Below, one piece after another: positions 29,852-58,525 of a DNA stretch of 64,000 bases. Origin of the DNA: Escherichia phage LinBro; the sequence record OR896830.1; one strand, given 5' to 3'. Every line of letters starts with the position of its first letter. Position 1 is the first letter of the stretch. The notes beneath the pieces were generated by a model. The model did not search any database. It was not told the DNA's origin and saw only the letters and a program-made list of their open reading frames with translations. The position numbers and the translations under genes are program-made.

Positions 29852-30408
29852 TTAGTGTACTTCAAGCCAATTCTTACCAACTTTACCAGTACCAGTTACA
29901 AGCGTTTCCTCCTTAAGTCCTAAGTTTCTTGATGCCTGACCATACATCCAGTCAATCACTGCTTTAACATCTTGTGTCATCTCTTCTGGGCACTCCCAAC
30001 TGTTCTCATCGTGGTATGCTAGAAGCAATCTAGCACCAATAGCTGGTTTTCGACCATTCAGCTTTGTAAGACCCTCTTCACAAGTTCTTCTACAAGCGAG
30101 GTTGATGGCTTCATTCTGAACCTGACTTTCCGAACCCATGAGCAGATAATTCAATAGTTTGTGTGGAGATTTACACCACAACCATGCACCAGCAACCTTT
30201 ACAAAACCACCTTTAGAGATTGCAGCAGTCTTACCAAATACCTCTTCAAGAGCCTTCTTAGTGGCTTTGAAGTCAGCTTCCAAATTATCTATCAACTTTT
30301 TAATCTTAGGGAGGCGTACAAAGTAAGTTTGCTTAGTTAAAGCACCTTCTTCGGTTGTTGATGCTTTAATCGTCTTGGCAAACTTCTCATCACCTGCCCC
30401 AAACAATA
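29852..30408 (-). CDS. DNA polymerase (family A), exon 2
   Basis: Begins LFGAGDEK (end of O-helix/motif B) and contains motif C LLLAYHDE; joined in frame to exon 1 by predicted splicing. Confidence 0.7.
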
Positions 30409-31209
30409 CATCTGGTCAATACACTCGCAAGGTGTACCAGTTCTCTTATGAACTTCTCCGCATTTCTACGGAGTGTCGGACTATATCACGTAGTAGTAAT
30501 ACTACCGTTGCACTTGGGAATGGTCATTAGCTTACCACCCTACTCTACTCAGTTCATACATTAAGTATGCTTTTCGATAGTCTCTGAACGTTTCTCTGTT
30601 AGGAACTCTAAAATACTATTGTTTACTAAGGTATGCAATTGCTCTCTGCATATTATCAACGCTATCTGCAAGCAACCCCAAAGCCCTATTGCAATTGTGG
30701 CACAACATACCTCTTACTTTTCCGGTTTTGTGGTCATGGTCAACGACAAGTTTAGCCTTATGCCGTGAACTATTCATGATAAAACCTTCACCGCCACAAA
30801 TTTGACATTTGTAATCACAGTTACGAAGTAGGGTTTCAACCTCTTCTCTTTCTAAACCATATGTTCTCAGGTAGTAATTCTTAACTCTACCTTTCTCTCC
30901 GCAATGCGAAGAACAATAAACTTGCCTTGCTGTTCTAGGCATGAACACCTTCTCACAGCTAGGACATTTCTTAGTAAGAACCCTATGTTCTGCTCTTCTG
31001 TCAAATTTTAATACGCAACTTCTGCACCGTTTTTGATTGTATTGGTATGGTTTAAACTCTGCACCACACTCAGTACACAATCTCTCTTTGTAACCTGCCA
31101 TTGTCTCTCTCCTTTGCTTTAGGAGTCCTAACAGAGACTTCGCTGCTGATTACCATATCTTTACAGACTTAGGCTTCCAGCAATTCACAACGTTTTACAT
31201 GCGCCACTG
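30409..31209 (-). mobile_element. group I intron interrupting the DNA polymerase gene (carries an HNH ORF)
   Basis: Exon 1 ends in U (31210) and intron ends in G (30409); P1 helix exon UAUGCGU with guide GCGCAUG (31204-31198); core elements GTTCAGAGACTA (30589-30578) and GATATAGTCC (30487-30478) on - strand; exon lengths sum in frame (2173+557=2730). Confidence 0.75.
30616..31101 (-). CDS. intron-encoded HNH / endonuclease VII-family homing endonuclease
   Basis: Cys-rich zinc ribbons (CTECG, CRSC, CPSC, CQIC) and VVDHDHKTGKVRGMLCHNCNRALG catalytic motif. Confidence 0.7.
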   Translation of the reverse strand: MAGYKERLCTECGAEFKPYQYNQKRCRSCVLKFDRRAEHRVLTKKCPSCEKVFMPRTARQVYCSSHCGEKGRVKNYYLRTYGLEREEVETLLRNCDYKCQICGGEGFIMNSSRHKAKLVVDHDHKTGKVRGMLCHNCNRALGLLADSVDNMQRAIAYLSKQ

Positions 31210-39220: not shown

Positions 39221-40261
39221 ATGGAGAAGTACACATTAACAAAGCTTCCCGATTCAGTTACACATGTCTTTATTGACTCTGACAGCATTGCCTATAAAGG
39301 TGCTTGTGTAGTTGAGAAAGCAAAGTATAAATACGTTAATAAACTCACCGCAGAAGAATCTGAGCCATTTGATAATGCAAAAGATGCTGCAAGATGGTTA
39401 GCAGACCAGAGAATCCTTGTAGAAGAGCTTGGCCTAGCATTTGATGAAGATGAATGGGAAAGACAGACTTGGAAAGAAGCTAAGAGTGAAAAAGAAGCTA
39501 TCATGGCTACTCAGCAGGTTCTTCAGGAATGGCTTAAGGTTGTTGGTAAAGAAAGAACTTGGGTAGGTTATTTAACAGAGAAGGGCGTGCATAAACATAA
39601 AGACATTAAAGGTCTTGAGCACCAATATCAAGGTAACCGTAAAGATGCTGTCACACCAACACACTTAGTTGCTTGTCGTGAATACCTTCTGTCAAGACCA
39701 GAGTTCAAACTGATTCTTGATGGATTTGAAGCCGACTCTATCGTTATTGCTAAAGCTGAAAAGATGGGTAAAAAGGCTGCCTTGATGAGTATTGATAAAG
39801 ACCTTCGCCAAGCTGAAGGGACTTACTGCATTGATATGACCTATGAGAAGTCACCTTTGATTTTCATTGCTGACAACAACGTAGGTGAAATTTGGGATTG
39901 CCCAATAAAATCAACACCAAAAGCTAAGAAGACAGTTGGTGTAGGTTTTAAATTCCTTTGTTATCAAGCTGTGGCTGGTGACAATGCTGATAATTATTTT
40001 GGTTTAAAGGGCGTTGGTAAGGCTACTGTAATGAAAGCCCTTGAAGGTAAAACCACTTACAAAGAGTGTCTTGATGCAATTTATGAGCTTTATGCTAAGA
40101 AAGAGTCATACACTTATGTCTCGTGGGATGGTCAAACAATTACCAGAACACCTTTAGAGTTAATGCAGCAACACTTTTTCTTAGCTTATCAGGAAAGAAA
40201 CAAGAAAGACGATTTCACTTTTAAGAAATATAATTGGGAGCCGTGTATGAATGAAGATTAA
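39221..40261 (+). CDS. 5'-3' exonuclease / flap endonuclease (FEN family)
   Basis: N-terminal VFIDSDSIAYK and helix-3-turn-helix-like YFGLKGVGKATVMKAL. Confidence 0.5.
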   Translation: MEKYTLTKLPDSVTHVFIDSDSIAYKGACVVEKAKYKYVNKLTAEESEPFDNAKDAARWLADQRILVEELGLAFDEDEWERQTWKEAKSEKEAIMATQQVLQEWLKVVGKERTWVGYLTEKGVHKHKDIKGLEHQYQGNRKDAVTPTHLVACREYLLSRPEFKLILDGFEADSIVIAKAEKMGKKAALMSIDKDLRQAEGTYCIDMTYEKSPLIFIADNNVGEIWDCPIKSTPKAKKTVGVGFKFLCYQAVAGDNADNYFGLKGVGKATVMKALEGKTTYKECLDAIYELYAKKESYTYVSWDGQTITRTPLELMQQHFFLAYQERNKKDDFTFKKYNWEPCMNED

Positions 40262-40748
40262 AGGATTTGGCAATTGCCCCACCTACGGTCATTGGGTATC
40301 TTTATGTGGGGAAGTTGACCCCACTAAACATTTTGGCTTTGTCTACCTAGTGTACTGCAAAAAGACTGGACAGTATTATTTGGGTAAAAAACAGCTTAAC
40401 AGTGTGACCAAAAGAAAAGTTGCTGGGAAGACTCGGAAGAAGGTAGTCACTAAGGAGAGTGATTGGATGACTTACGAGACTTCTTCTGAGTATATTAAAA
40501 AAGATATTGAGAGTTTTGGAAAAGAATTTTTTGACTTTTACATTATTCAGACCTACTACACAAAAGGTGGCCTAGTCTATGGTGAAGCAAACCTTCAACA
40601 TAAATTCGATGTAATGACAAAAAGGATTGACTCTAAGCTCAGACTCTTCTACAATGCCAATATTGCAGCAATTAAGTTTATCACTAAAGAAACTTATGAA
40701 GATGCTGAAAAAAGAATCCATAAGGTCATGAAAGCAAATTGTGCTTGA
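40251..40748 (+). CDS. GIY-YIG domain protein (candidate)
   Basis: GFVYLVYCKKTGQYYLGKK resembles the GIY...YIG motif; only 165 aa, no DNA-binding extension. Confidence 0.35.
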   Translation: MKIKGFGNCPTYGHWVSLCGEVDPTKHFGFVYLVYCKKTGQYYLGKKQLNSVTKRKVAGKTRKKVVTKESDWMTYETSSEYIKKDIESFGKEFFDFYIIQTYYTKGGLVYGEANLQHKFDVMTKRIDSKLRLFYNANIAAIKFITKETYEDAEKRIHKVMKANCA

Positions 40749-47731: not shown

Positions 47732-48473
47732 TAACAAGCTCTATAGCTCATCTAAAACGTGCCTAAACAGGGAAACTCTACAGATGTAGACAATCCTGTG
47801 CTAAATGATGTACGATGTAAGAAACTATACAACATAGGAGTCTTACATGCCAAACTATCACGTCACTGAAGATGGAAAAGTCTTTAGGGAAAATGGTGTA
47901 GAGCTTACGCAGTGGAAATCCAACACTGGGTATATGAAAGTGAGGTTTTACGGTAAGAAGAATCGTGACATGTATGTCCACAGGTTAGTTGCTGAGAAAT
48001 ATGTACCTAACCCGAACAATCTTCCAATTGTAAAACATAAGGACGATAACAAACTAAATAACCACGTATCTAACTTAGAATGGGGTACTCATTCTGATAA
48101 TGCTAAAGAAGGTTATGAGAATGGATGTTACAAGTTCCACAAGCGTTCATATGCCGTGAAAGCCACACACAAAGTGACAAAGGAAGTTATTGTTACTAAG
48201 TCAATACGAGAGTTATCCAATATACTTGGATACAATCGCAAGACCATCTCTTCAATATTGAAGGGTGTAAAAGAGCATAATAACTTCGAATATGAGTTTG
48301 AATACATCTAAATGCCGAACGACTAACCGTGATGAATGTAGCGGTGTAGGGTCAAGCGACTCGAAATGGTACGCTACTTAGAAATAAGTAGAAGATATAG
48401 TCTGGACTTACTGGCGACAGTAAGCAGCTTGAATAAAGCGGGGTAAGCTTAGCGAACTTACCTGAACAATAAG
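47732..48473 (+). mobile_element. group I intron interrupting nrdD (carries an HNH ORF)
   Basis: Exon 1 ends in U, intron ends in G (aag at 48471-48473); P1 helix exon GATGGGT with guide GCTCATC (47746-47752); core elements GAACGACTAA (48317-48326) and AAGATATAGTC (48391-48401); join gives ISPMG|CRAFLSP. Confidence 0.75.
47847..48311 (+). CDS. intron-encoded HNH homing endonuclease
   Basis: 154 aa; VHRLVAEKY...HKDDNKLNNHVSNLEWGTHSDN typical of the HNH_3-type family. Confidence 0.7.
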   Translation: MPNYHVTEDGKVFRENGVELTQWKSNTGYMKVRFYGKKNRDMYVHRLVAEKYVPNPNNLPIVKHKDDNKLNNHVSNLEWGTHSDNAKEGYENGCYKFHKRSYAVKATHKVTKEVIVTKSIRELSNILGYNRKTISSILKGVKEHNNFEYEFEYI

Positions 48474-49421
48474 TGTAGAGCATTTTTATCACCATACCAT
48501 AACGAATATGGTGAAGAGTTTTATGTAGGTCGTGCTAACATTGGTGCTGTATCTTTGAACTTACCAATGATTTACCAGTATTCTAAAGAGAATGGTTTAG
48601 ATTTCTGGAAAGAGCTTGATAAGTACCTAGAGATGATTCGCAGCTTCCACAAGAAACGCTACGAAATGATTGCTAATATGCCAGCAAGCTCTAACCCTCT
48701 TGCATTCACACAAGGTGGCCTGTACAAAGGGACTAAGAAATCTACCGACAAGGTTGGCTGGGATATCGTGAAGTCCTTCACAGCTTCTTTTGGAGTTACT
48801 GCGCTTGATGAGCTATCTGTTCTTGCTGAAGGTAAACGACTTCATGAAGTTGGGAGCTATAGTTTTGCATACGATGTTCTGGCATACATCAACATGAAAA
48901 CTGAAGAGTTTAAAAATGAAGATGGCTTCTTATATGCTGTCTATGGTACTCCAGCAGAATCACTTTGTGGAACTCAACTAAAACAGTTCAGAGAAATGTT
49001 TGGTGTTATCAAAGGTGTTTCTGACAAGGAATACTTTACAAACAGTTTCCATATGAATGTTGCAGCAGACATCTCACCATTTGAGAAGCAGGACTTAGAA
49101 GAGCCATTCTTCCATATCTGTAGAGGTGGCAGAATCCAGTATGTCAGGGTAGCTAACCCAGAAAACTTAACAGCACTTAAGAGTTGTATTACAAGAGGGA
49201 TGTTGAAAGGTTTTTATCAGGGACTTAACTTTGACCTAGCAATTTGTGAGCATTGTGGTAGCAGACCAAAGGCTGATGTTGAAGAATGTGAGGTTTGCCA
49301 TTCACATGACATCTCTGTGATTAACAGGGTGTGCGGATATCTGGGATGGACTAAGATTAAAGGTGAATCCCGAATGAATGATGCAAAAATCGCTGAGATT
49401 CGTGACAGGATTTCTATGTAA
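48474..49421 (+). CDS. nrdD: anaerobic ribonucleotide reductase (class III), exon 2
   Basis: Begins CRAFLSP...GRANIGAVSLNLP; C-terminal CxxC zinc site and glycyl-radical motif RVCGYLG. Confidence 0.75.
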   Translation, partial: CRAFLSPYHNEYGEEFYVGRANIGAVSLNLPMIYQYSKENGLDFWKELDKYLEMIRSFHKKRYEMIANMPASSNPLAFTQGGLYKGTKKSTDKVGWDIVKSFTASFGVTALDELSVLAEGKRLHEVGSYSFAYDVLAYINMKTEEFKNEDGFLYAVYGTPAESLCGTQLKQFREMFGVIKGVSDKEYFTNSFHMNVAADISPFEKQDLEEPFFHICRGGRIQYVRVANPENLTALKSCITRGMLKGFYQGLNFDLAICEHCGSRPKADVEECEVCHSHDISVINRVCGYLGWTKIKGESRMNDAKIAEIRDRISM

Positions 49422-50227: not shown

Positions 50228-50713
50228 ATGAATTACATGGAGATTAGACCATTTGACACAGCTAATGGTGAAGGGGTTCGTGTAAGCCTCTTCGTAGCTG
50301 GCTGTAAACATCACTGTGAAGGCTGCTTTAACAGGGAGTCTTGGAAGTTTAATGCTGGTAAAGTATTTACTTATGCAAACCTCTACGGCATCATTAAGTT
50401 AATGGATGATGAGGCCATCAGTGGGTTGTCAATACTTGGTGGGGAGCCTCTGGATGATAGAAACATTCAAGAGGTCACCAACATATGCAAACGTATTAAA
50501 ACTGTTTATCCAGAAAAGTCTATATGGCTTTGGACAGGTTTTCAGTTACACGAAAAAATTCACTTAGATGTGATGAAATATGTTGACGTAGTGATTGATG
50601 GTAAGTATGATTCATCTAAACCAACAGTTAAACCTTATCGTGGTTCTGATAACCAAAACCTCTGGAGAAAAGAGTATGGGTGGCAAGGTGATTGTCAATG
50701 GCGAGCAGAATGA
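50228..50713 (+). CDS. nrdG: anaerobic ribonucleotide reductase activating protein (radical SAM)
   Basis: CKHHCEGC (Cx3Cx2C) radical-SAM cluster motif near N-terminus; 161 aa; near nrdD. Confidence 0.75.
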   Translation: MNYMEIRPFDTANGEGVRVSLFVAGCKHHCEGCFNRESWKFNAGKVFTYANLYGIIKLMDDEAISGLSILGGEPLDDRNIQEVTNICKRIKTVYPEKSIWLWTGFQLHEKIHLDVMKYVDVVIDGKYDSSKPTVKPYRGSDNQNLWRKEYGWQGDCQWRAE

Positions 50714-50951
50714 TTATTCTGGCAAGTGGACTTACGACATCAACAAGTTAGATGCTTGGATGATTTATACAAGAGAAAAATTTGGCGAACGTTCATTATG
50801 TGCTCTTGCAACAATGGTGAAGAACGTTGCCTTTGTCATTCATGAATCAGATAAGTTTGGAGACTTCTACAGGATTCAAAACATTAGAGAAGGTATAACT
50901 CCAATCGGTATCACTGAAGAAGAACTCCATAAGTTCTGTATTAAACTTTAA
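50676..50951 (+). CDS. hypothetical protein
   Basis: Track ORF 50595-50951 trimmed to in-frame ATG at 50676; overlaps nrdG 3' end. Confidence 0.3.
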   Translation: MGGKVIVNGEQNDYSGKWTYDINKLDAWMIYTREKFGERSLCALATMVKNVAFVIHESDKFGDFYRIQNIREGITPIGITEEELHKFCIKL

Positions 50952-50966
50952 TGAGAGAGACTAAAA

Positions 50967-51233
50967 ATGGGAATTTTAGGTAATATGAAAGCTGGCTTCT
51001 TGAAGGCACTGGCAAAAGCAGCAGCAATCATTTCTATGACTGGAAAGCAGGTTGGTGTAGATGCTTCAGCAATTGCACAGGTTCTTGCAAGCCAAATTGA
51101 ACAGCAGCCTTACATCCACGTTGGACGTGGCAAAGGTGGTAAGAAACAAGCACATCGACCAACTGGTGCAGCAGCAATTAAACGTGCAGCTAAAAAAGCT
51201 CGTAACCGTAAACGTAATAAGAAGGCTAAATAA
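50967..51233 (+). CDS. small protein with amphipathic N-terminus and highly basic C-terminal tail
   Basis: 88 aa; C-terminus GRGKGGKKQAHRPTGAAAIKRAAKKARNRKRNKKAK. Confidence 0.35.
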   Translation: MGILGNMKAGFLKALAKAAAIISMTGKQVGVDASAIAQVLASQIEQQPYIHVGRGKGGKKQAHRPTGAAAIKRAAKKARNRKRNKKAK

Positions 51234-51607: not shown

Positions 51608-52123
51608 ATGTACCTGTCAAATCTGAAACGTTCTGCTGCAATGTCAGTGTTAAGACTCAGTTTTGAGGAACGTCAAGAGTTCATTGACTCCCACCAATAC
51701 GACCCTTCTAACTCCAATCACATGATTCTCTGGAATCGTGACAGTACTCGTGAAAGAGCACTATTCCGTTACTACCCACATTACACCATAGACAACTTGT
51801 ATGAATGTTTTGTTGTGAAGAACACCATTACAGTACTCAATAAACTTTGCAGATACACAGGTAGTCAATCCTTCACATTAGGCCACCACAAACCCGTTAC
51901 AAAGGGTGGTGAGCATCACTGTGCAAACTGGTTTATCCAGACTAAACTTGATAACCAGAAGCAAGGGGATAACCTCCTAAGCACACCTAAGATGACCTAT
52001 GAAGAGCAAGAGAAATATATCAAAAATAATATGCCAGATGTGCTTGACAACAACTATACAGATTTGGCAATATCTCTCCTGTTGAAGTTCGAGACAGTTT
52101 ATAGGGCAACTTACAATGGCTAA
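51608..52123 (+). CDS. HNH-like nuclease domain protein (candidate)
   Basis: GHHKPVTKGGEHHCANWFIQTKLDNQKQ resembles the HH..P...GG.....N HNH signature. Confidence 0.3.
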   Translation: MYLSNLKRSAAMSVLRLSFEERQEFIDSHQYDPSNSNHMILWNRDSTRERALFRYYPHYTIDNLYECFVVKNTITVLNKLCRYTGSQSFTLGHHKPVTKGGEHHCANWFIQTKLDNQKQGDNLLSTPKMTYEEQEKYIKNNMPDVLDNNYTDLAISLLLKFETVYRATYNG

Positions 52124-52394
52124 AGAGAAGTGGGAGATTTTACCATTAGTCAGTGAAGGCGGTAATGGTTGTGAAATGTACATGATACGTGGGCATGTTC
52201 CAGAACCAATTGCACTTGAGATGGTAAACAACTTTACAGATGGCTCTTACAAAGACTTAGGGGAGCCAAATATAAAGCAGCAATGGGTAAAGCCTGTACC
52301 AGACAGCACAGGTAACTGTAGTGTACTTTATCACGTTGTAGACCCTGCAAAATGCAAATCTGCAATGGCAGTAACAAACGTAACTTTTGATTGA
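52116..52394 (+). CDS. hypothetical protein
   Basis: 92 aa ORF. Confidence 0.3.
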   Translation: MAKEKWEILPLVSEGGNGCEMYMIRGHVPEPIALEMVNNFTDGSYKDLGEPNIKQQWVKPVPDSTGNCSVLYHVVDPAKCKSAMAVTNVTFD

Positions 52395-53287
52395 GAGAGA
52401 AAACTATGAAAACTGTTATTGAAGCCGTCGTCACCGCTCAAGAGAAATTCTTCCACACAGAAAAATTTAATATCATTCAATTCCCATCTGGAGAAATTGG
52501 TGGAAACTTCTCTGAAGATTTTGTTAAGTTTACTGAGCGTAATGCTGGTAAGATTGATAATGTTATAATTACTGTACAGGGATATGACAAAGATACACTG
52601 TTTGCATTAGCTTTGGCTAAGGATGCCGTTGACAGTCTTGTTCCCCAGAAATCAGCGATGAAAACCGTTGTTTTCGGGTTCTTACCAAATGCTCGATATG
52701 ACCGCCACATGTTCAAAGGTGATGCAGCAGCACTGAAAGCCTTTGCCAACCTAGTTAATGCAATGGGTTTTGATGCAGTATGTGCTCTTGACCCTCACAG
52801 TAATGTTGCAGAAAACTTATTTAAGTGCTTTCAAAGCATGAAGCAAAAAGATGTGGCAGTACACTTTGCAAGTGACCCACGCATTGATTTCTTGGTAGCC
52901 CCAGATGCAGGTGCAGCTAAGAAGACTGAAGATACCGCTAAAGAGGTGGATAAGCCGTATATCACAATGTCTAAGGTGCGCAATCTTAAGACTGGAGAAA
53001 TCACTGGTATGCGAATCCTTGACGATGTTGATTTGACCGATAAAACTGTCATGATTCTTGATGATATCTGTGATGGTGGTCGAACATTCGTAGAGGCAGC
53101 TAAACACCTACGTGAAGCAGGTGCAAAACGTGTGGAACTCTATGTAACTCATGGTATTTTCTCTAAAGGTGTTGAAAACTTACTTGACAACGGTATTGAC
53201 CATATCTACACTACAAACACTTTAGGCGAAGCTAAAGACCGTGGCTTAACACATTATGGTCAAGTTACTGTAGCAAACATTGATTAG
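52391..53287 (+). CDS. ribose-phosphate pyrophosphokinase (Prs)-like phosphoribosyltransferase-fold protein
   Basis: PRPP-binding loop VMILDDICDGGRTF near the C-terminal third; ~300 aa as for Prs. Confidence 0.6.
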   Translation: MREKTMKTVIEAVVTAQEKFFHTEKFNIIQFPSGEIGGNFSEDFVKFTERNAGKIDNVIITVQGYDKDTLFALALAKDAVDSLVPQKSAMKTVVFGFLPNARYDRHMFKGDAAALKAFANLVNAMGFDAVCALDPHSNVAENLFKCFQSMKQKDVAVHFASDPRIDFLVAPDAGAAKKTEDTAKEVDKPYITMSKVRNLKTGEITGMRILDDVDLTDKTVMILDDICDGGRTFVEAAKHLREAGAKRVELYVTHGIFSKGVENLLDNGIDHIYTTNTLGEAKDRGLTHYGQVTVANID

Positions 53288-53295
53288 GTAACAGT

Positions 53296-53787
53296 ATGAA
53301 TAAGGGTTATTTTGAAAGATACCTAATATATGAACCAGATACAGGTTTATTAATTTGGAGAGTAACCCTTTGCAGTACCGCTATTGCTGGTAATGTGGCT
53401 GGCACAAGGTCTAAGAAGGGTTATATCCAAGTCCAGATAAATAAGAAGAGGTACTATGCACATAATATTGCATGGATTATGTCTGGAGGTGAGATACCAA
53501 GTGGATATGAGATAGACCACATAGACCTTGATAAATCTAATAATAAGTTGGAGAATTTAAGACTTAGCACAAAGTCACAAAATCAGAGGAATAGGGGTAT
53601 ATACAAGAATAATAAAACTGGTGTGAAGGGTGTAAGTTTTTGTAAACAAACAGGTCTTTACAAAGCAAGAGTCATGCTTTACCATAAAGAATACTTTTGT
53701 GGAAGATTTAAAACGGTAGAAGAAGCAAAAGAAGCTGTAATTAAAAAGCGAATAGAACTTCATGGTGAGTTTGCAAGACATAACTAA
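53296..53787 (+). CDS. free-standing HNH homing endonuclease with AP2-like DNA-binding domain
   Basis: YEIDHIDLDKSNNKLENLRLSTKSQN HNH_3-like motif followed by GVKGVSF...GLYKARV...FKTVEEAKEA AP2-like segment. Confidence 0.65.
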   Translation: MNKGYFERYLIYEPDTGLLIWRVTLCSTAIAGNVAGTRSKKGYIQVQINKKRYYAHNIAWIMSGGEIPSGYEIDHIDLDKSNNKLENLRLSTKSQNQRNRGIYKNNKTGVKGVSFCKQTGLYKARVMLYHKEYFCGRFKTVEEAKEAVIKKRIELHGEFARHN

Positions 53788-53801
53788 GAGAGAGGTAAAA
53801 T

Positions 53802-55583
53802 ATGAGTAAGTCACTTTACGCAGTACCAGCAGGTCTTAATGCAGATGCTTACAAGGCATCACATATATATCAGTATCCAGATGCTACGCAATATCTTATG
53901 TTGAACCTGACACCACGTAGTGATAAATGGTTTAACAGCCCCTTAGCAATTGACGGTGTAGTAGCTTTTGGTATTCAACGTTTCGTTAAAGATTACTTGA
54001 TAGACCATTGGAATGCTACGTTCTTTGAACGTGACAAAAAAGAAGCAATTGACGAAATCTTAGAAGTCATGAATGGTGTTCTGGGCAAAGATGCTATCGG
54101 TCGAGAGCATTGGGAGGCACTTCACGACTTAGGTTATCTACCAGTTGAAGTATACGCTGTAGAAGAAGGCACAGTTGTCCCTATGCGTGTTCCGATGATT
54201 GTTTTCCAGAACACTGTTTCAGGTTTCCATTGGGTAGCAGGTTATCTGGAAGATGCTTTCTCTGCTGAGATTTGGAAGGCTTGTACCATTGCAACTATTG
54301 CATTGCACTACAAACGTATCTGTAAGAAGTGGGCTGACCTTACTTGTGACAACGACTTGCATTTGCCTTATCAGTGCCATGACTTTGCTATGCGTGGTAT
54401 GTCCGGCTTTACTGATGACGCATTTAACGCTGTAGGCCACTTAACCAGCTTTAAAGGAACTGATAGCTTCCCTGCTGTGTATACGGCTAAACGAATCTAT
54501 GGACAGTCCTACCCAATCTCTGATATTGGTAGCTCTGTACCAGCCACTGAGCACTCTGTAATGTGTGCAAACATTGCTTGGGAAGGTGGTAATGAGTTGA
54601 TTGAAGAAGAAAGACGCTTTAAAGGTGAGTTACAGACCTTCCGTCGTTTCTTAACAGAAACTTACCCAACTGGTATTGCAAGTATTGTTTCAGACACTTA
54701 TAACTTCTGGAGAACTGTGTCAGAAATCTTACCAGCACTTCGTAAAGAAATTATGGAACGTGATGGTAAGCTGGTAATTCGCCCTGACTCTGGAGACCCT
54801 GTACATATTGTCACAGGCTATAAAGCAATCCACTTAGAGTGTGCTAAGAAGGCTTATTATGAGCACCTAAGCAAGCTGGAAGCTAGTGACACAATGTTGA
54901 ATGCTGTTCTGAACATGAAGCTTGAAAACATCAACTATGGTATTGCTGGATGGCTACTGTCAGAAGGCTACGAAATGGTTGTTGACAGAGAAGACTTTGA
55001 AGTTGCTGATACAGTGATGTTGAAAAATGCTTATATGGTTGGCTCTGCAAACGTTGTAACACGTCCTGTAGCAGAGATTGATGGAGCTATTAAGACCCTG
55101 TACAACATCTTCGGAGGGACTATTAACTCTAAAGGGTTTAAGGTACTGGATGAGCACATCGGCCTTATCTATGGTGACTCTATCACGCTGGAACGTGCAA
55201 ACGAAATCCTGAAGCGTCTGTATGAAATGGGTTTTGCAAGCTCTAACGTAGTGTTTGGTGTAGGCTCTTACACTTACCAGTACATGACTCGCGACACCTT
55301 TGCATTTGCTGTCAAAGCAACTCTTGCAAGCATTGGTGGTAAAGAGATTATGCTTGCAAAAGACCCTAAAACAGATAGTGGTGTTAAGAAATCTGCCTTT
55401 GGTGGTGTAGCACCTATGTGGGATGGTGATAAGCTGAAAGCTGTAGATGGCTATGGATTCCAGAGTTTTGCAGATGTACTTGACCACCAAGCTTGTGCTT
55501 TACGTTTAGTCTTTAGCGACTCTGAGCAGTTCGGTTATACAACTCTTGGAGATATTCGAAATAATATTGACAAGCAGCTTTAA
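53802..55583 (+). CDS. nicotinamide phosphoribosyltransferase (NAMPT/NadV)-like protein
   Basis: N-terminal ADAYKASHIYQYPDAT resembles the NAMPT signature (DxYK..H..QYP); 593 aa. Confidence 0.65.
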   Translation: MSKSLYAVPAGLNADAYKASHIYQYPDATQYLMLNLTPRSDKWFNSPLAIDGVVAFGIQRFVKDYLIDHWNATFFERDKKEAIDEILEVMNGVLGKDAIGREHWEALHDLGYLPVEVYAVEEGTVVPMRVPMIVFQNTVSGFHWVAGYLEDAFSAEIWKACTIATIALHYKRICKKWADLTCDNDLHLPYQCHDFAMRGMSGFTDDAFNAVGHLTSFKGTDSFPAVYTAKRIYGQSYPISDIGSSVPATEHSVMCANIAWEGGNELIEEERRFKGELQTFRRFLTETYPTGIASIVSDTYNFWRTVSEILPALRKEIMERDGKLVIRPDSGDPVHIVTGYKAIHLECAKKAYYEHLSKLEASDTMLNAVLNMKLENINYGIAGWLLSEGYEMVVDREDFEVADTVMLKNAYMVGSANVVTRPVAEIDGAIKTLYNIFGGTINSKGFKVLDEHIGLIYGDSITLERANEILKRLYEMGFASSNVVFGVGSYTYQYMTRDTFAFAVKATLASIGGKEIMLAKDPKTDSGVKKSAFGGVAPMWDGDKLKAVDGYGFQSFADVLDHQACALRLVFSDSEQFGYTTLGDIRNNIDKQL

Positions 55584-55597
55584 AAGTATATGATAAG

Positions 55598-55619
55598 AGG
55601 CTCCTACGGGAGCCTTTTT
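55598..55619 (+). terminator. rho-independent terminator
   Basis: AGGCTCC-tacg-GGAGCCT hairpin followed by TTTTT. Confidence 0.65.
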
Positions 55620-55636
55620 AATTTCTGGAGAAGATT

Positions 55637-55972
55637 ATGAAAATCAAAGAAATGAACATTAACGTTGTCCTAGAAGAACGTTGGGAGAACATTAAGAAAC
55701 CTGAAGATGGTAAAAAGTTCCTTAACAAAATTTTAGTAGCAGCTAAAGAAGAACTGACTGGCAAGATTGCAGCAGCAATCACAATAAAAATCTGTGTAAA
55801 AGGTCTTCCACAACATCACCAATTTGCACTTGACGAGTTTAAAGAAAGCTTCTACAATCCAAACAAACAGATGCTTGAAAGTAACTTTGCAGTGTCTACA
55901 AGTATCGTCCATGACAGAAGCTTTATCCTTTACAAGAATATGAGAGGTGAGTCATGCAAGCATATTGGATAG
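55637..55972 (+). CDS. hypothetical protein
   Basis: 111 aa ORF. Confidence 0.3.
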   Translation: MKIKEMNINVVLEERWENIKKPEDGKKFLNKILVAAKEELTGKIAAAITIKICVKGLPQHHQFALDEFKESFYNPNKQMLESNFAVSTSIVHDRSFILYKNMRGESCKHIG

Positions 55973-56130
55973 AAATTTTACTGTCACTTGGTAGTGTAGC
56001 AGTATTTGTTTACCTTCTTTGCAAGTACTATGCAGAGCACAAGAAGTGTGATTACTGCAACGGGGAAGGGTACACAAGAGCAGGTTGTTGCCCTATTTGT
56101 GGTGGTTCTGGTAAAATGTTTAATAAGTAA
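55954..56130 (+). CDS. small membrane protein with DnaJ-type zinc finger (CxxCxGxG x2)
   Basis: 58 aa ORF below track cutoff: N-terminal TM helix then CDYCNGEG...CPICGGSG. Confidence 0.35.
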   Translation: MQAYWIEILLSLGSVAVFVYLLCKYYAEHKKCDYCNGEGYTRAGCCPICGGSGKMFNK

Positions 56131-56158
56131 TTTAACAGTAAACTAAGAGGAAAGTATT

Positions 56159-58525
56159 ATGCGCATGGTAAATGACCACGCAGAAGTGATTAAGAGTTCA
56201 ACTTCTTTGGAGACATCTCAAGCACAGATTACAATGACACCTGAAATGTTCAGCCTTCTGAGTTCTGGTGTATACACATTCAAAGAAAGGGCAGTGATTC
56301 GTGAACTGTCATGTAATGCAGTAGATGCTCAGAAAGAAGCTGGAAAAGAGAACATCCCATTCCATGTGCATTTACCTACTCGATTTGAGCCTTACTTTGA
56401 AGTCCGTGACTTTGGAACTGGTTTAACCCATGACAAAGTAATGAGTTTGTACCTGAACTATGGGGCTTCTACGAAGAATGACTCTAATGATTACATTGGT
56501 GCAATGGGTATCGGCTCAAAATCACCATTTGCAATTGCTCAGTCATTCACAGTGTCTAGCTATGTTGATGGTGTTGTTAATAAGTACTCTGTTTACCTTG
56601 AGAATGGTATACCTCAAGTAACTAAGCTTACTACTAACCCAACAAATGAACCCAATGGTTTAGCTGTACGTGTGGCAGTTGCTGACCACCGTATTTCAAA
56701 GTTCTTTGAAGAGGCTGGTCATGTATACTCATACTTTGCTGTAAAACCAGAAAGTAACATTGTATATGATGATGTGTTAGCAGATATGAACGTCATTGCT
56801 CGTGAAGAAGGTGTTTATGATGCCATGATTCATAAGCAAAGCTGGCGTTCTAGTGGTAACAGGACGGAGTTTAATGTGGTGATGGGTAATATTGCCTATC
56901 CAGTGAACATGGAAGCATTACTTGGTGATGATTTCTTCAAAGTCTTGCCAGAGTTTTTCCGTAGGAGCGTAGACCTTGTAAACATTTACATGCCTATTGG
57001 TTCAGTCGCTATTGCAGCTTCTCGTGAAGCATTGCAGATGAATGATACGACAAAAAATGTTATCATTGAGGCTACTAAAAAGATAACTGAAGCAATTACA
57101 AAGGATGTTATCAAGAAAGTTAATAGCCAACCTACACTCATGGATGCTGCACAGGCTTATGCTGAGTTACGTTTGAACTCACGAGAGATGTTTAATGCTG
57201 TGTGTCCAAAGTTAGAGTGGGGAGGCGTTAAGCTTGATTCTTTGGAAGAAGAATTACTAAACATTCGTCGTGGGATTATCTACGCAGAAGACGGCTCAGT
57301 CATTTATGAACGTGACGGCAAAGGTAATATTAAGGTTGACAGTAAAGGAAACAACATTCCTAAAGTGGACTACCTATACAATCCAGTTGCTTATGTTAAG
57401 TTCAACTCTTTAGAGAGTAAGATTCGTGCAACAGCACTTTCCTACACTCAAGAGGCGAGCATGTTCAATATCTTTGGTGCAATGCGTAAAAGCCAAATTG
57501 AACAGTTTTTGTTCGTGATTAATGACCGTCGCAATAAAAACGGTACTGAAAAGACTGTAGGCCGCAATCAGATTCTGCGTGGTGCATGTCGAGACTACGC
57601 CAGTGAGTCAAGTCTGTTTCACAGATATAATGGTATTGTGTTTGTATTCTCGACTGAAAAAGAGTTAGACGACCTAATCAATCTACACAAACTTGATAAA
57701 AGCTTGTTAAAGATTGTGAAAATGTCTGATAAGGAGCACCATTACCAGCGCAAAGAAGCTGTAAGGGGTGTTGTAAAACTCTGGAAAGCTGTTCCAGCAG
57801 AAGGTGTAGCTTCCTATAAAGAGGTTTCAGAGGACTTTGATACAATTGAAGAACCTCAGCTTTACATTAAGGCAGTTGGTGACACAGTTGATGGCGAATG
57901 TTTTTGCTCATCTCCAGAAGATGTAGCTAAGTCAGTCGCTAATGTTCTAGGGAAGACAGTCTATGTTTTCCGAAAAGCAAATTGGAAAAAGATACCAGAA
58001 GACTGGATTGAAGTAGATGAGAAGCTCTTGAACGACAGCTTAACTGATGTTCACTGGATTAATCATAACAGGTATATGACACGTATCTATATGAATGGTG
58101 TTCTTGACCTTACAAGCAGTTGGATTATCACCAGAAACTTTACATTCAATAACAGGAAGATTTCTCGTGGTTATTGCTATTCACGAGATACTAACAAAAC
58201 TATCTTCCTAGAAGGCAATGAAGATGCTGTAGAGGCAATGTTCGGTAAAATCCAATACGTTGCTGCACCATTTGCATACACTTATACTGTTAGTGTATTG
58301 AAAACTTTGAAAGACTGTCTTGACAATGATACAAAGCTTTACAAGAAAATTAAGAAAGCTGGTGACCGCATGGTCATTAAGGTGACAAACTACCTTTCAA
58401 AAAGAAAACAAGAAAACTTCTTGCTTTCTCATTTAGATTGGAATAAAGTGTCGCCTATCGAAGTGAGTAAGTTCTTAGGCTTTGATGTGAAGTGTGTTCC
58501 AGAAGGGACTACAATTTACGATTAA
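56159..58525 (+). CDS. rIIA: rIIA-like protein with N-terminal GHKL (Bergerat-fold) ATPase domain
   Basis: ATPase motifs IRELSCNAVDA (N box), VRDFGTGL (G1), GAMGIGSKS (G2); 788 aa followed by rIIB-sized ORF. Confidence 0.6.
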   Translation: MRMVNDHAEVIKSSTSLETSQAQITMTPEMFSLLSSGVYTFKERAVIRELSCNAVDAQKEAGKENIPFHVHLPTRFEPYFEVRDFGTGLTHDKVMSLYLNYGASTKNDSNDYIGAMGIGSKSPFAIAQSFTVSSYVDGVVNKYSVYLENGIPQVTKLTTNPTNEPNGLAVRVAVADHRISKFFEEAGHVYSYFAVKPESNIVYDDVLADMNVIAREEGVYDAMIHKQSWRSSGNRTEFNVVMGNIAYPVNMEALLGDDFFKVLPEFFRRSVDLVNIYMPIGSVAIAASREALQMNDTTKNVIIEATKKITEAITKDVIKKVNSQPTLMDAAQAYAELRLNSREMFNAVCPKLEWGGVKLDSLEEELLNIRRGIIYAEDGSVIYERDGKGNIKVDSKGNNIPKVDYLYNPVAYVKFNSLESKIRATALSYTQEASMFNIFGAMRKSQIEQFLFVINDRRNKNGTEKTVGRNQILRGACRDYASESSLFHRYNGIVFVFSTEKELDDLINLHKLDKSLLKIVKMSDKEHHYQRKEAVRGVVKLWKAVPAEGVASYKEVSEDFDTIEEPQLYIKAVGDTVDGECFCSSPEDVAKSVANVLGKTVYVFRKANWKKIPEDWIEVDEKLLNDSLTDVHWINHNRYMTRIYMNGVLDLTSSWIITRNFTFNNRKISRGYCYSRDTNKTIFLEGNEDAVEAMFGKIQYVAAPFAYTYTVSVLKTLKDCLDNDTKLYKKIKKAGDRMVIKVTNYLSKRKQENFLLSHLDWNKVSPIEVSKFLGFDVKCVPEGTTIYD

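Follow-up and report, generated by a model that had tools for sequence, protein, structure and literature searches.

The free-standing homing endonucleases of bacteriophage T4 are among the closest described systems for the subject of this report, a homing endonuclease gene (HEG) lying between prs and nadV in a stretch of 64,000 nucleotides (nt) of DNA from Escherichia phage LinBro (OR896830.1), the whole of which is called the window. T4 MobA, MobE, SegF and SegG are, like the protein encoded in the window, the products of free-standing genes sited among conserved genes. Spread of such genes by gene conversion (intronless homing) has been inferred or shown in T4, with co-conversion of flanking DNA and cleavage apart from the insertion site, and HEG-carrying genomes are protected by sequence polymorphism (PMC2988022; PMC2790892). 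MobA and MobE, which are HNH enzymes, nick their targets (PMC2988022). The window protein differs from the T4 Mob proteins in its DNA-binding module, which has an AP2 fold where they have other C-terminal domains, and from the Seg proteins in its catalytic domain, which is HNH rather than GIY-YIG. In addition, the distance from cut to insertion is hundreds to thousands of base pairs (bp) in T4, whereas sequence comparison points to about 50-80 bp here.

Two structural relatives complete the background. I-HmuI (PDB 1U3E), an intron-encoded HNH nicking enzyme of Bacillus phage SPO1, is the nearest structural match to the predicted model of the HEG product. Both have the layout of an extended monomer in which an N-terminal His-Me finger nuclease precedes the DNA-binding modules, but I-HmuI shares only 18% identity, is encoded within an intron and ends in a helix-turn-helix instead of an AP2 domain. 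The plant AP2/ERF domains (AtERF1 1GCC, TEM1, ERF96 and WRI1) have the same sheet-plus-helix fold as the C-terminus of the HEG product, with a root mean square deviation (rmsd) of 1.2-1.4 Å over 47-49 columns. Identity to them is 22-26%, and in the phage protein the domain is joined to a nuclease instead of forming part of a transcription factor.

The gene itself has been seen before. Dozens of Ounavirinae records annotate it as an HNH or homing endonuclease, and it is orthologous to Felix O1 ORF128 (NP_945017), which occupies the same prs/nadV locus, has the same length (163 amino acids) and shows 89.8% nucleotide identity; there is no difference of substance and the two are the same gene. 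The copies in VpaE1 (YP_009147398) and Si3 (YP_009600329), both annotated "HNH endonuclease", are identical to that of the window in every nucleotide. The Felix O1 genome is reported to have six HNH-like sequences and no introns (PMC3185647), and a Felix 01 HNH endonuclease is placed among AP2-containing homing endonucleases in the passage of PMC5318435 that cites Magnani et al. (2004). The gene, its family and its HNH-AP2 architecture are already known, as is the mobility of phage homing endonucleases in general. New here, and not found in the published literature located, are a mapped cassette, a candidate target or immunity site and natural alleles of a resistant type. The HEG is probably a functional free-standing HNH homing endonuclease gene with an AP2-fold domain, which homes via a target inside nadV; enzymatic activity, cut position and direction of transfer are inferred.

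The endonuclease gene and its empty site

The source genome is a Felixounavirus (Ounavirinae, the Felix O1 subfamily). The 4.7 kb surrounding the HEG match 257 phage records, mostly Ounavirinae and mainly Felixounavirus, the top match being Escherichia phage ekra (96.9%). The locus contains the following features.

52406-53287, + strand: prs (ribose-phosphate pyrophosphokinase-like), upstream neighbour, intact (Pfam Pribosyltran/Pribosyl_synth, phrog_619)
53288-53295, + strand: 8-nt spacer GTAACAGT, the left insertion junction (sequence; alignment of filled with empty sites)
53296-53787, + strand: free-standing HEG, 163 amino acids, intact, ATG to TAA (open reading frame, Pfam, PHROGs)
53452-53589, + strand: HNH_3 nuclease domain, residues 53-98 (Pfam PF13392)
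53617-53766, + strand: AP2/ERF-fold DNA-binding domain, residues 108-157 (sub-threshold Pfam match, predicted model, Foldseek)
53788-53801, + strand: 14-nt spacer GAGAGAGG, the right junction and nadV ribosome-binding region, common to empty sites
53802-55583, + strand: nadV (nicotinamide phosphoribosyltransferase), downstream neighbour, intact (Pfam NAPRTase/NAMPT_N, phrog_448)

The initial annotation described an HNH_3 plus AP2-like open reading frame (ORF) of 163 amino acids between prs-like and NAMPT-like genes, separated from them by 8-15 nt and interrupting neither, and this description was borne out by ORF calling, Pfam and PHROGs. The prs stop codon at 53285-53287 leaves 8 nt before the HEG and the nadV ATG at 53802 leaves 14 nt after it, and both neighbours are full length. 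(The prs start at 52406 follows the 882-nt annotation of relatives; ORF calling places it at a TTG at 52391.) The gene is free-standing, being intergenic, with no in-frame fusion and with the stop and start codons of its neighbours intact; no Rfam ribozyme match was found in the 53-54 kb interval at the gathering threshold. A Shine-Dalgarno-like element, AGGT, is formed by the prs stop codon TAG and the GT of the 8-nt spacer. The GC content of the HEG is 34.6%, compared with 40.6% for prs and 42.4% for nadV, and tblastn with the HEG protein as query revealed no paralog within the window.

The nuclease domain matched Pfam HNH_3 over the whole 46-position profile with 69.6 bits (E 1.7e-19), above the gathering score of 24.8, and PHROGs assigned it to phrog_99, HNH endonuclease (E 2.9e-68). 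When the protein was aligned with 42 homologs of 33-80% identity, D74 and H75 (codons at 53515-53520), N87, R89 and N99 were invariant among the 43 sequences, and N83, N96 and H56 were conserved in at least 90% of them. These residues correspond, as judged from the alignment, to the His/Asn set of a ββα-metal finger. The initial annotation had allowed that catalytic His/Asn residues might be lacking on careful alignment; D74, H75, N87 and N99 show that they are in place. Pairwise ratios of nonsynonymous to synonymous substitution (dN/dS) were 0.10-0.21 among the alleles of Felixounavirus, Mooglevirus and Suspvirus, indicating that the HEG is under purifying selection.

The same 43-sequence alignment served as input for an AlphaFold2 model, in which the mean predicted local distance difference test score (pLDDT) was 92.6. 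The nuclease part of the model has strands at residues 71-75 and 88-92 and a helix at 93-97. At the C-terminus, strands at 113-116, 121-128 and 131-138 form a three-stranded antiparallel sheet packed on a helix at 141-159 (pLDDT about 92-96), which is the AP2/ERF fold. A Foldseek search of the PDB with the model placed I-HmuI (1u3e) first (E 1.9e-4, probability 1.00). For the C-terminal 50 residues it returned AtERF1 (1gcc; rmsd 1.4 Å over 49 columns, probability 1.00), as well as the AP2 domain of TEM1, ERF96 and WRI1; probability was 1.00 for 1gcc, 7et4 and 7et5, with rmsd values of 1.2-2.8 Å. Precomputed hits to PF00847 (Pfam AP2) are present in many HEG homologs of 40-60% identity. A phmmer search of PDB sequences with the HEG product found no relative.

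Presence of the HEG was compared across 15 annotated and 29 IMG/VR loci, giving 37 unique junctions out of ~250 Ounavirinae genomes. HEG DNA occurs in 63 phage records, while about 224-250 have the prs-nadV junction, so that about a quarter carry the gene; the nadV segment 53904-54695 alone is found in 224 records. A junction query of 1701 bp matched 295 records, only 61 of which were covered to at least 80%. The other Ounavirinae among the matches listed aligned in two pieces spanning about 1232 bp, as an empty site would. Phages with and without the gene (HEG+ and HEG-) occur in three genera: both types are found in Felixounavirus, Moogle is HEG+ and Mordin, Sf13 and Sf14 are HEG- in Mooglevirus, and phiSUSP1 is HEG+ and mistaenkt HEG- in Suspvirus. 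The presence/absence polymorphism that the initial annotation predicted at this junction is therefore real, and the alternative it named, universal syntenic presence, does not hold. The boundaries of the HEG are identical across the three genera. At this junction Pectobacterium phage Arno162 has a more distant ortholog, 56% identical in amino acids, and a metagenomic Ounavirinae contig (L045) has an 80%-identical HEG; a further homolog, of 44% identity, has unrelated surroundings.

Alignment of filled with empty sites places the left boundary of the insertion at the prs stop codon. HEG- phages have a spacer of 44-48 nt, consisting of about 10 nt after the prs stop, a hairpin, A(T/C)TTT and then GAGAGAGAT..ATG. 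The stem, GGGGCT-N4-AGCCCC, is invariant, with a variable 4-nt loop and a stability of about -12 kcal/mol, in every HEG- phage of all three genera. HEG+ phages have the hairpin part swapped for GTAACAGT and the 492-nt ORF, and retain the GAGAGAG ribosome-binding region. The hairpin was considered as a terminator, but a consensus scan did not call one because its tail has only 4 T; it is consequently described as a conserved GC hairpin and not as a proven terminator.

The history of the HEG differs from that of its flanks. The HEG of the window is 100% identical to that of VpaE1 and Si3, although prs is 81-82% and nadV about 96% identical. Similarly, Felix O1 and phiSUSP1 show 94.7% identity in the HEG, 74.8% in nadV and 78.6% in prs. 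When the 10-11 HEG+ taxa were placed by Fitch parsimony on neighbour-joining trees built from prs or distal nadV, 8-11 state changes were required. On these sequences, the HEG phylogeny is incongruent with that of the flanks and the HEG is better conserved than the genes on either side.

Two deeply diverged prs allele classes were observed in Felixounavirus, with 60-66% identity in 100-nt bins of 52400-52900 and about 81% over the gene. VpaE1 and Si3 (HEG+) and wV8 (HEG-) have one class, and the window, LNA1 and Felix O1 have the other; the class is independent of HEG status.

Linked sequence in nadV and the candidate target

Three segments around the HEG were delimited by comparing HEG+ with HEG- phages.

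53806-53897, + strand: linkage block, a 5' stretch of nadV moving together with the HEG (association of single-nucleotide polymorphisms, bin identities)
53852-53882, + strand: putative target or immunity core, containing nadV codon 20 (shortest HEG+-type patch common to three HEG-less recombinants)
53257-54695, + strand: 1.44-kb patch that differs from HEG- phage LNA1 (mismatch counts)

Linkage to the HEG is confined to one side. Among 26 unique Felixounavirus junctions, 8 of them HEG+, all 18 HEG-associated single-nucleotide polymorphism (SNP) columns (allele-frequency difference of at least 0.7) fall in 53806-53897. The last 400 nt of prs have no HEG-linked SNP except the stop-codon base 53287, and there is none in 53902-54401. 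The bin identities (100 nt) agree with this. The window is 99-100% identical to HEG- LNA1 in prs and 74% identical in the first 100 nt of nadV, and in the 53800 bin it is 100% identical to HEG+ VpaE1 and Si3. In this bin the HEG+ phages Moogle and phiSUSP1, from other genera, share 93-94% identity with the window, falling to 77-78% in the next. The mobile unit is about 610 bp (53288 to about 53900), comprising the HEG and the first ~100 nt of nadV, and replaces about 30 nt of the ancestral 45-nt spacer, the conserved GC hairpin included.

Codon 20 of nadV (53859-53861) separates the two types. Over all genera, TCA stands there in 9/9 unique sequences with the HEG, and 21 unique HEG- sequences have GGY; the HEG+ contig L045 has GCT. 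HEG+ type sequence around codon 20 nevertheless occurs in three phages that lack the HEG, EC6 (L020), L021 and L033, in which the hairpin is retained and the nadV start is of the HEG- type.

The window and LNA1 provide a pair in which a likely exchange stands out against a nearly uniform background. Their surroundings are 99.5-99.9% identical, with 7 mismatches in 51996-53256 and 2 in 54696-56208. The HEG lies inside the 1.44-kb patch, where mismatches number 26 in 53806-53903 and 39 in 53904-54695. The patch looks like a conversion or recombination tract that carried the HEG, on the evidence of this alignment. No donor matching the 53904-54695 tract above 98.2% was found; HEG+ phages were enriched among the hits to this query (6/11 top hits), which is only suggestive. 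The linkage block at 53806-53897 and the 1.44-kb patch constitute the pattern that co-conversion would leave in natural genomes. The initial annotation had called the arrangement typical of homing elements that spread by gene conversion of flanking DNA, and the cassette boundaries, the incongruence of HEG and flanks and the linkage of flanking markers support such spread, as found in natural genomes rather than in crosses.

Homing via nadV would proceed as follows. An HEG+ and an HEG- Ounavirinae phage would co-infect one cell, and the enzyme would bind and then nick or cut the HEG- allele, most likely some 50-80 bp downstream of the insertion point, in nadV codons ~17-27. Protection of HEG+ alleles would come from their diverged codons 18-20, which are AAG NCA TCA as opposed to AAA NCT GGY in HEG- alleles. 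Recombinational repair from the HEG+ genome would copy the resistant nadV segment, and the HEG would be copied too when the repair tract reaches prs; a short repair tract would bring in the resistant site alone. A break inside nadV fits both the one-sided block, which ends about 40 nt past codon 20, and the patches in HEG-less phages. The proposed logic would be that of the intronless homing of T4 Seg and Mob endonucleases. It is possible, with a chance put at a little under even, that three states of such a homing cycle have been sampled at one locus across three genera, namely HEG+ resistant, HEG- sensitive (GGY) and HEG- resistant (TCA of the EC6 type).

A mobile HEG might instead recognise and cut the insertion site itself, the hairpin or spacer of the empty allele, so that insertion removes the site and gives automatic immunity after the manner of intron or intein homing, the linked nadV sequence being ordinary co-conversion. 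Insertion does precisely replace the part of the spacer that contains the invariant GGGGCT-N4-AGCCCC stem, which is the sole GC-rich element of the spacer, and plant AP2/ERF domains bind GC-rich boxes. Furthermore, intron-encoded endonucleases cut within about 25 bp of their insertion site (PMC2988022). However, a cut in the spacer should leave roughly symmetric tracts of variable length, whereas 0 SNPs are linked in 400 nt of prs and 18 are linked in nadV nt 5-96, the linkage stopping abruptly near 53900. The three HEG-less recombinants also argue against a spacer target, since they have the hairpin and the HEG- nadV start and yet an internal HEG+ patch centred on codon 20, such as short-patch repair of a break in nadV would leave. 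Cleavage at the insertion site is accordingly considered unlikely. That the HEG is no longer an active mobile element but domesticated or hitch-hiking, its patchiness being due to ordinary recombination and repeated deletion in the mosaic Ounavirinae, is very unlikely: there is mosaicism independent of the HEG (two prs allele classes at ~81%, differing segments at 50.2-51.2 kb in close relatives), purifying selection is expected for a domesticated protein too and loss of the prs-nadV hairpin on insertion could alter nadV expression, but a HEG 100% identical over 492 nt beside genes differing by 4-19% indicates very recent, repeated transfer of exactly this cassette, and its boundaries are identical in three genera; low GC, a fixed insertion point and a variant patch tightly linked to it in the next gene are typical of homing, not of random mosaicism. 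Both explanations are less likely than homing through a break in nadV.

Several observations weigh against homing through a target in nadV, or against the domain assignment. The Pfam AP2 match (PF00847) of the HEG product scores 20.9 bits (E 4.5e-4), below the gathering score of 33.3. Arno162, which has the 56%-identical HEG, has GGT at codon 20; this codon is consequently not altered in all HEG+ phages, and specificity may differ at such divergence. Linkage of the nadV 5' end could reflect ancestry, with one insertion into that allele followed by recombination, and the HEG-less phages carrying the patch could have the ancestral pre-insertion allele or have lost the HEG precisely. The difference between the window and LNA1 cannot be polarised as gain or loss. 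Finally, no biochemical or genetic test of cleavage by the HEG protein, or of its preferential inheritance, was found in the literature.

The nadV gene of ekra has a 2-nt (AT) insertion in an (AT)n run at codons 21-23 (L001 22303-22400, corresponding to 53862-53870 of the window). This insertion sits inside the candidate target patch and frameshifts the 5' end of nadV, which is annotated in ekra as starting about 100 nt downstream. Either an error in sequencing or a genuine lesion, at a site that is broken again and again, could account for it.

Other nuclease genes and local mosaicism in the window

The initial annotation counted at least three or four HNH nucleases in 25 kb, including two intron-encoded enzymes and a further HNH-like ORF. 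The genes concerned, and one of another family, are as follows.

47847-48311, + strand: HNH_3 and NUMOD1 ORF in an 820-nt insert (47735-48554) that splits nrdD
30616-31101, - strand: Endonuclease VII-family (Endonuclease_7) ORF in a 762-nt insert (30407-31168) interrupting the family A DNA polymerase gene
40251-40748, + strand: SegE-type GIY-YIG endonuclease ORF after a 5'-3' exonuclease gene (Pfam SegE_GIY-YIG, E 9.4e-27)
51608-52123, + strand: core gene, phrog_3500, with an HNH-like motif (PHROGs, alignment)

The HEG and three further nuclease ORFs (Endonuclease VII, HNH_3 with NUMOD1, and GIY-YIG) lie within 23 kb. Of the two enzymes called intron-encoded HNH nucleases, the one in nrdD is indeed HNH_3, whereas that in the polymerase gene belongs to the Endonuclease VII family. 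The nrdD ORF is not detectably related to the HEG at the BLAST level. In a local search against Rfam (gathering score 50), group I matches to both inserts were sub-threshold, with 33.1 bits (E 2e-6) for nrdD and 28.1 bits (E 6e-5) for the polymerase, and nothing was found in the whole window at the gathering threshold; the inserts are thus not proven introns. Mosaicism at these loci was expected from the initial annotation and is evident. The nrdD insert is full length in 60 records and the polymerase insert in 40, and both are absent from ekra, where the polymerase gene and nrdD are uninterrupted.

The nrdD insert used as a query also matched 630 phage records, T4-like, Pseudomonas and Vibrio phages among them, which points to an intron core or exon-edge sequence that many phages share. 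At the GIY-YIG locus, ekra (L001 8984-9993) has an extra HNH homing endonuclease gene, ekra_48, directly upstream of the GIY-YIG gene, which the window lacks; it is another presence/absence polymorphism for a nuclease gene.

The ORF at 51608-52123 was regarded in the initial annotation as a further selfish HNH nuclease, a view that is not upheld as regards mobility. It is present in 14/14 related loci that were fetched with annotation or aligned there, and was rejected as a homing element because all related loci compared contain it. A gene of similar size is annotated there in 12/12 annotated related loci from three genera (171 amino acids in most, 177 in JH2), and the ORF aligns at 89-100% identity in unannotated LNA1; the Arno162 counterpart is 39% identical. 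Its HNH nature is suggested only by an invariant motif, FTLGH-x-x-P..GG.HH..NW.IQ...DNQ, which includes H93-x-x-P96, G100-G101, N107 and N116. Pfam gave no HNH match to it even at E ≤ 10, PHROGs gave a match to phrog_2214 at only E 2.4e-4, Foldseek returned HNH proteins only at E > 2, and a profile search against the PDB gave no significant HNH match. The model of this protein (pLDDT 65) has a predicted ββα arrangement at residues 89-122.

Over residues 11-53, the profile of the same protein family weakly and repeatedly matched staphylococcal protein A in its three-helix domains for IgG binding (segment VLRLsFEERqEFIdShqYDPSnS), with a summed E of 3e-7, single repeats not being significant. 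The likeness is probably due to a shared helical motif rather than to homology.

Further differences among relatives were observed upstream of the HEG. Citrobacter phage Mordin (L007 1742-2670) has two extra 450-nt ORFs (gp060 and gp059) between the homolog of ORF 52116-52394 and prs, which neither the window nor any other relative examined contains. JH2 is 0-37% identical to the window over ORF 52116-52394. Compared with the window, LNA1 carries some 240 extra nt at about 50200 and diverges strongly over 50700-51200. The replacements in JH2 and LNA1 are, as far as the alignments indicate, dense small-scale mosaicism unrelated to recognisable nuclease genes.

Consequences for Felix O1-like phages

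As the gene and its family are already annotated, known phage biology is unchanged and the value of the analysis is practical. The unit of exchange at the prs/nadV junction is a ~610-bp cassette and not the ORF alone, and its exchange explains local mosaicism that otherwise confuses the phylogeny and typing of Felixounavirus. A specific prediction follows, namely that the enzyme cuts in nadV codons ~17-27, that resistance is gained through a change of codon 20 from GGY to TCA or GCT, and that phages of the EC6 type are naturally resistant.

If the 31-nt patch at 53852-53882 is the true determinant of recognition and immunity, it would be a rare natural read-out of the DNA specificity of an AP2 domain, read in its presumed ancestral, nuclease-linked context. 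The locus would then also offer a tractable coliphage system for the dynamics of intronless homing, both alleles occurring in phages of E. coli K-12. Phage-therapy cocktails often mix Felix O1-like phages, and co-infection would be expected to move the cassette, with the adjacent nadV sequence, among their members.

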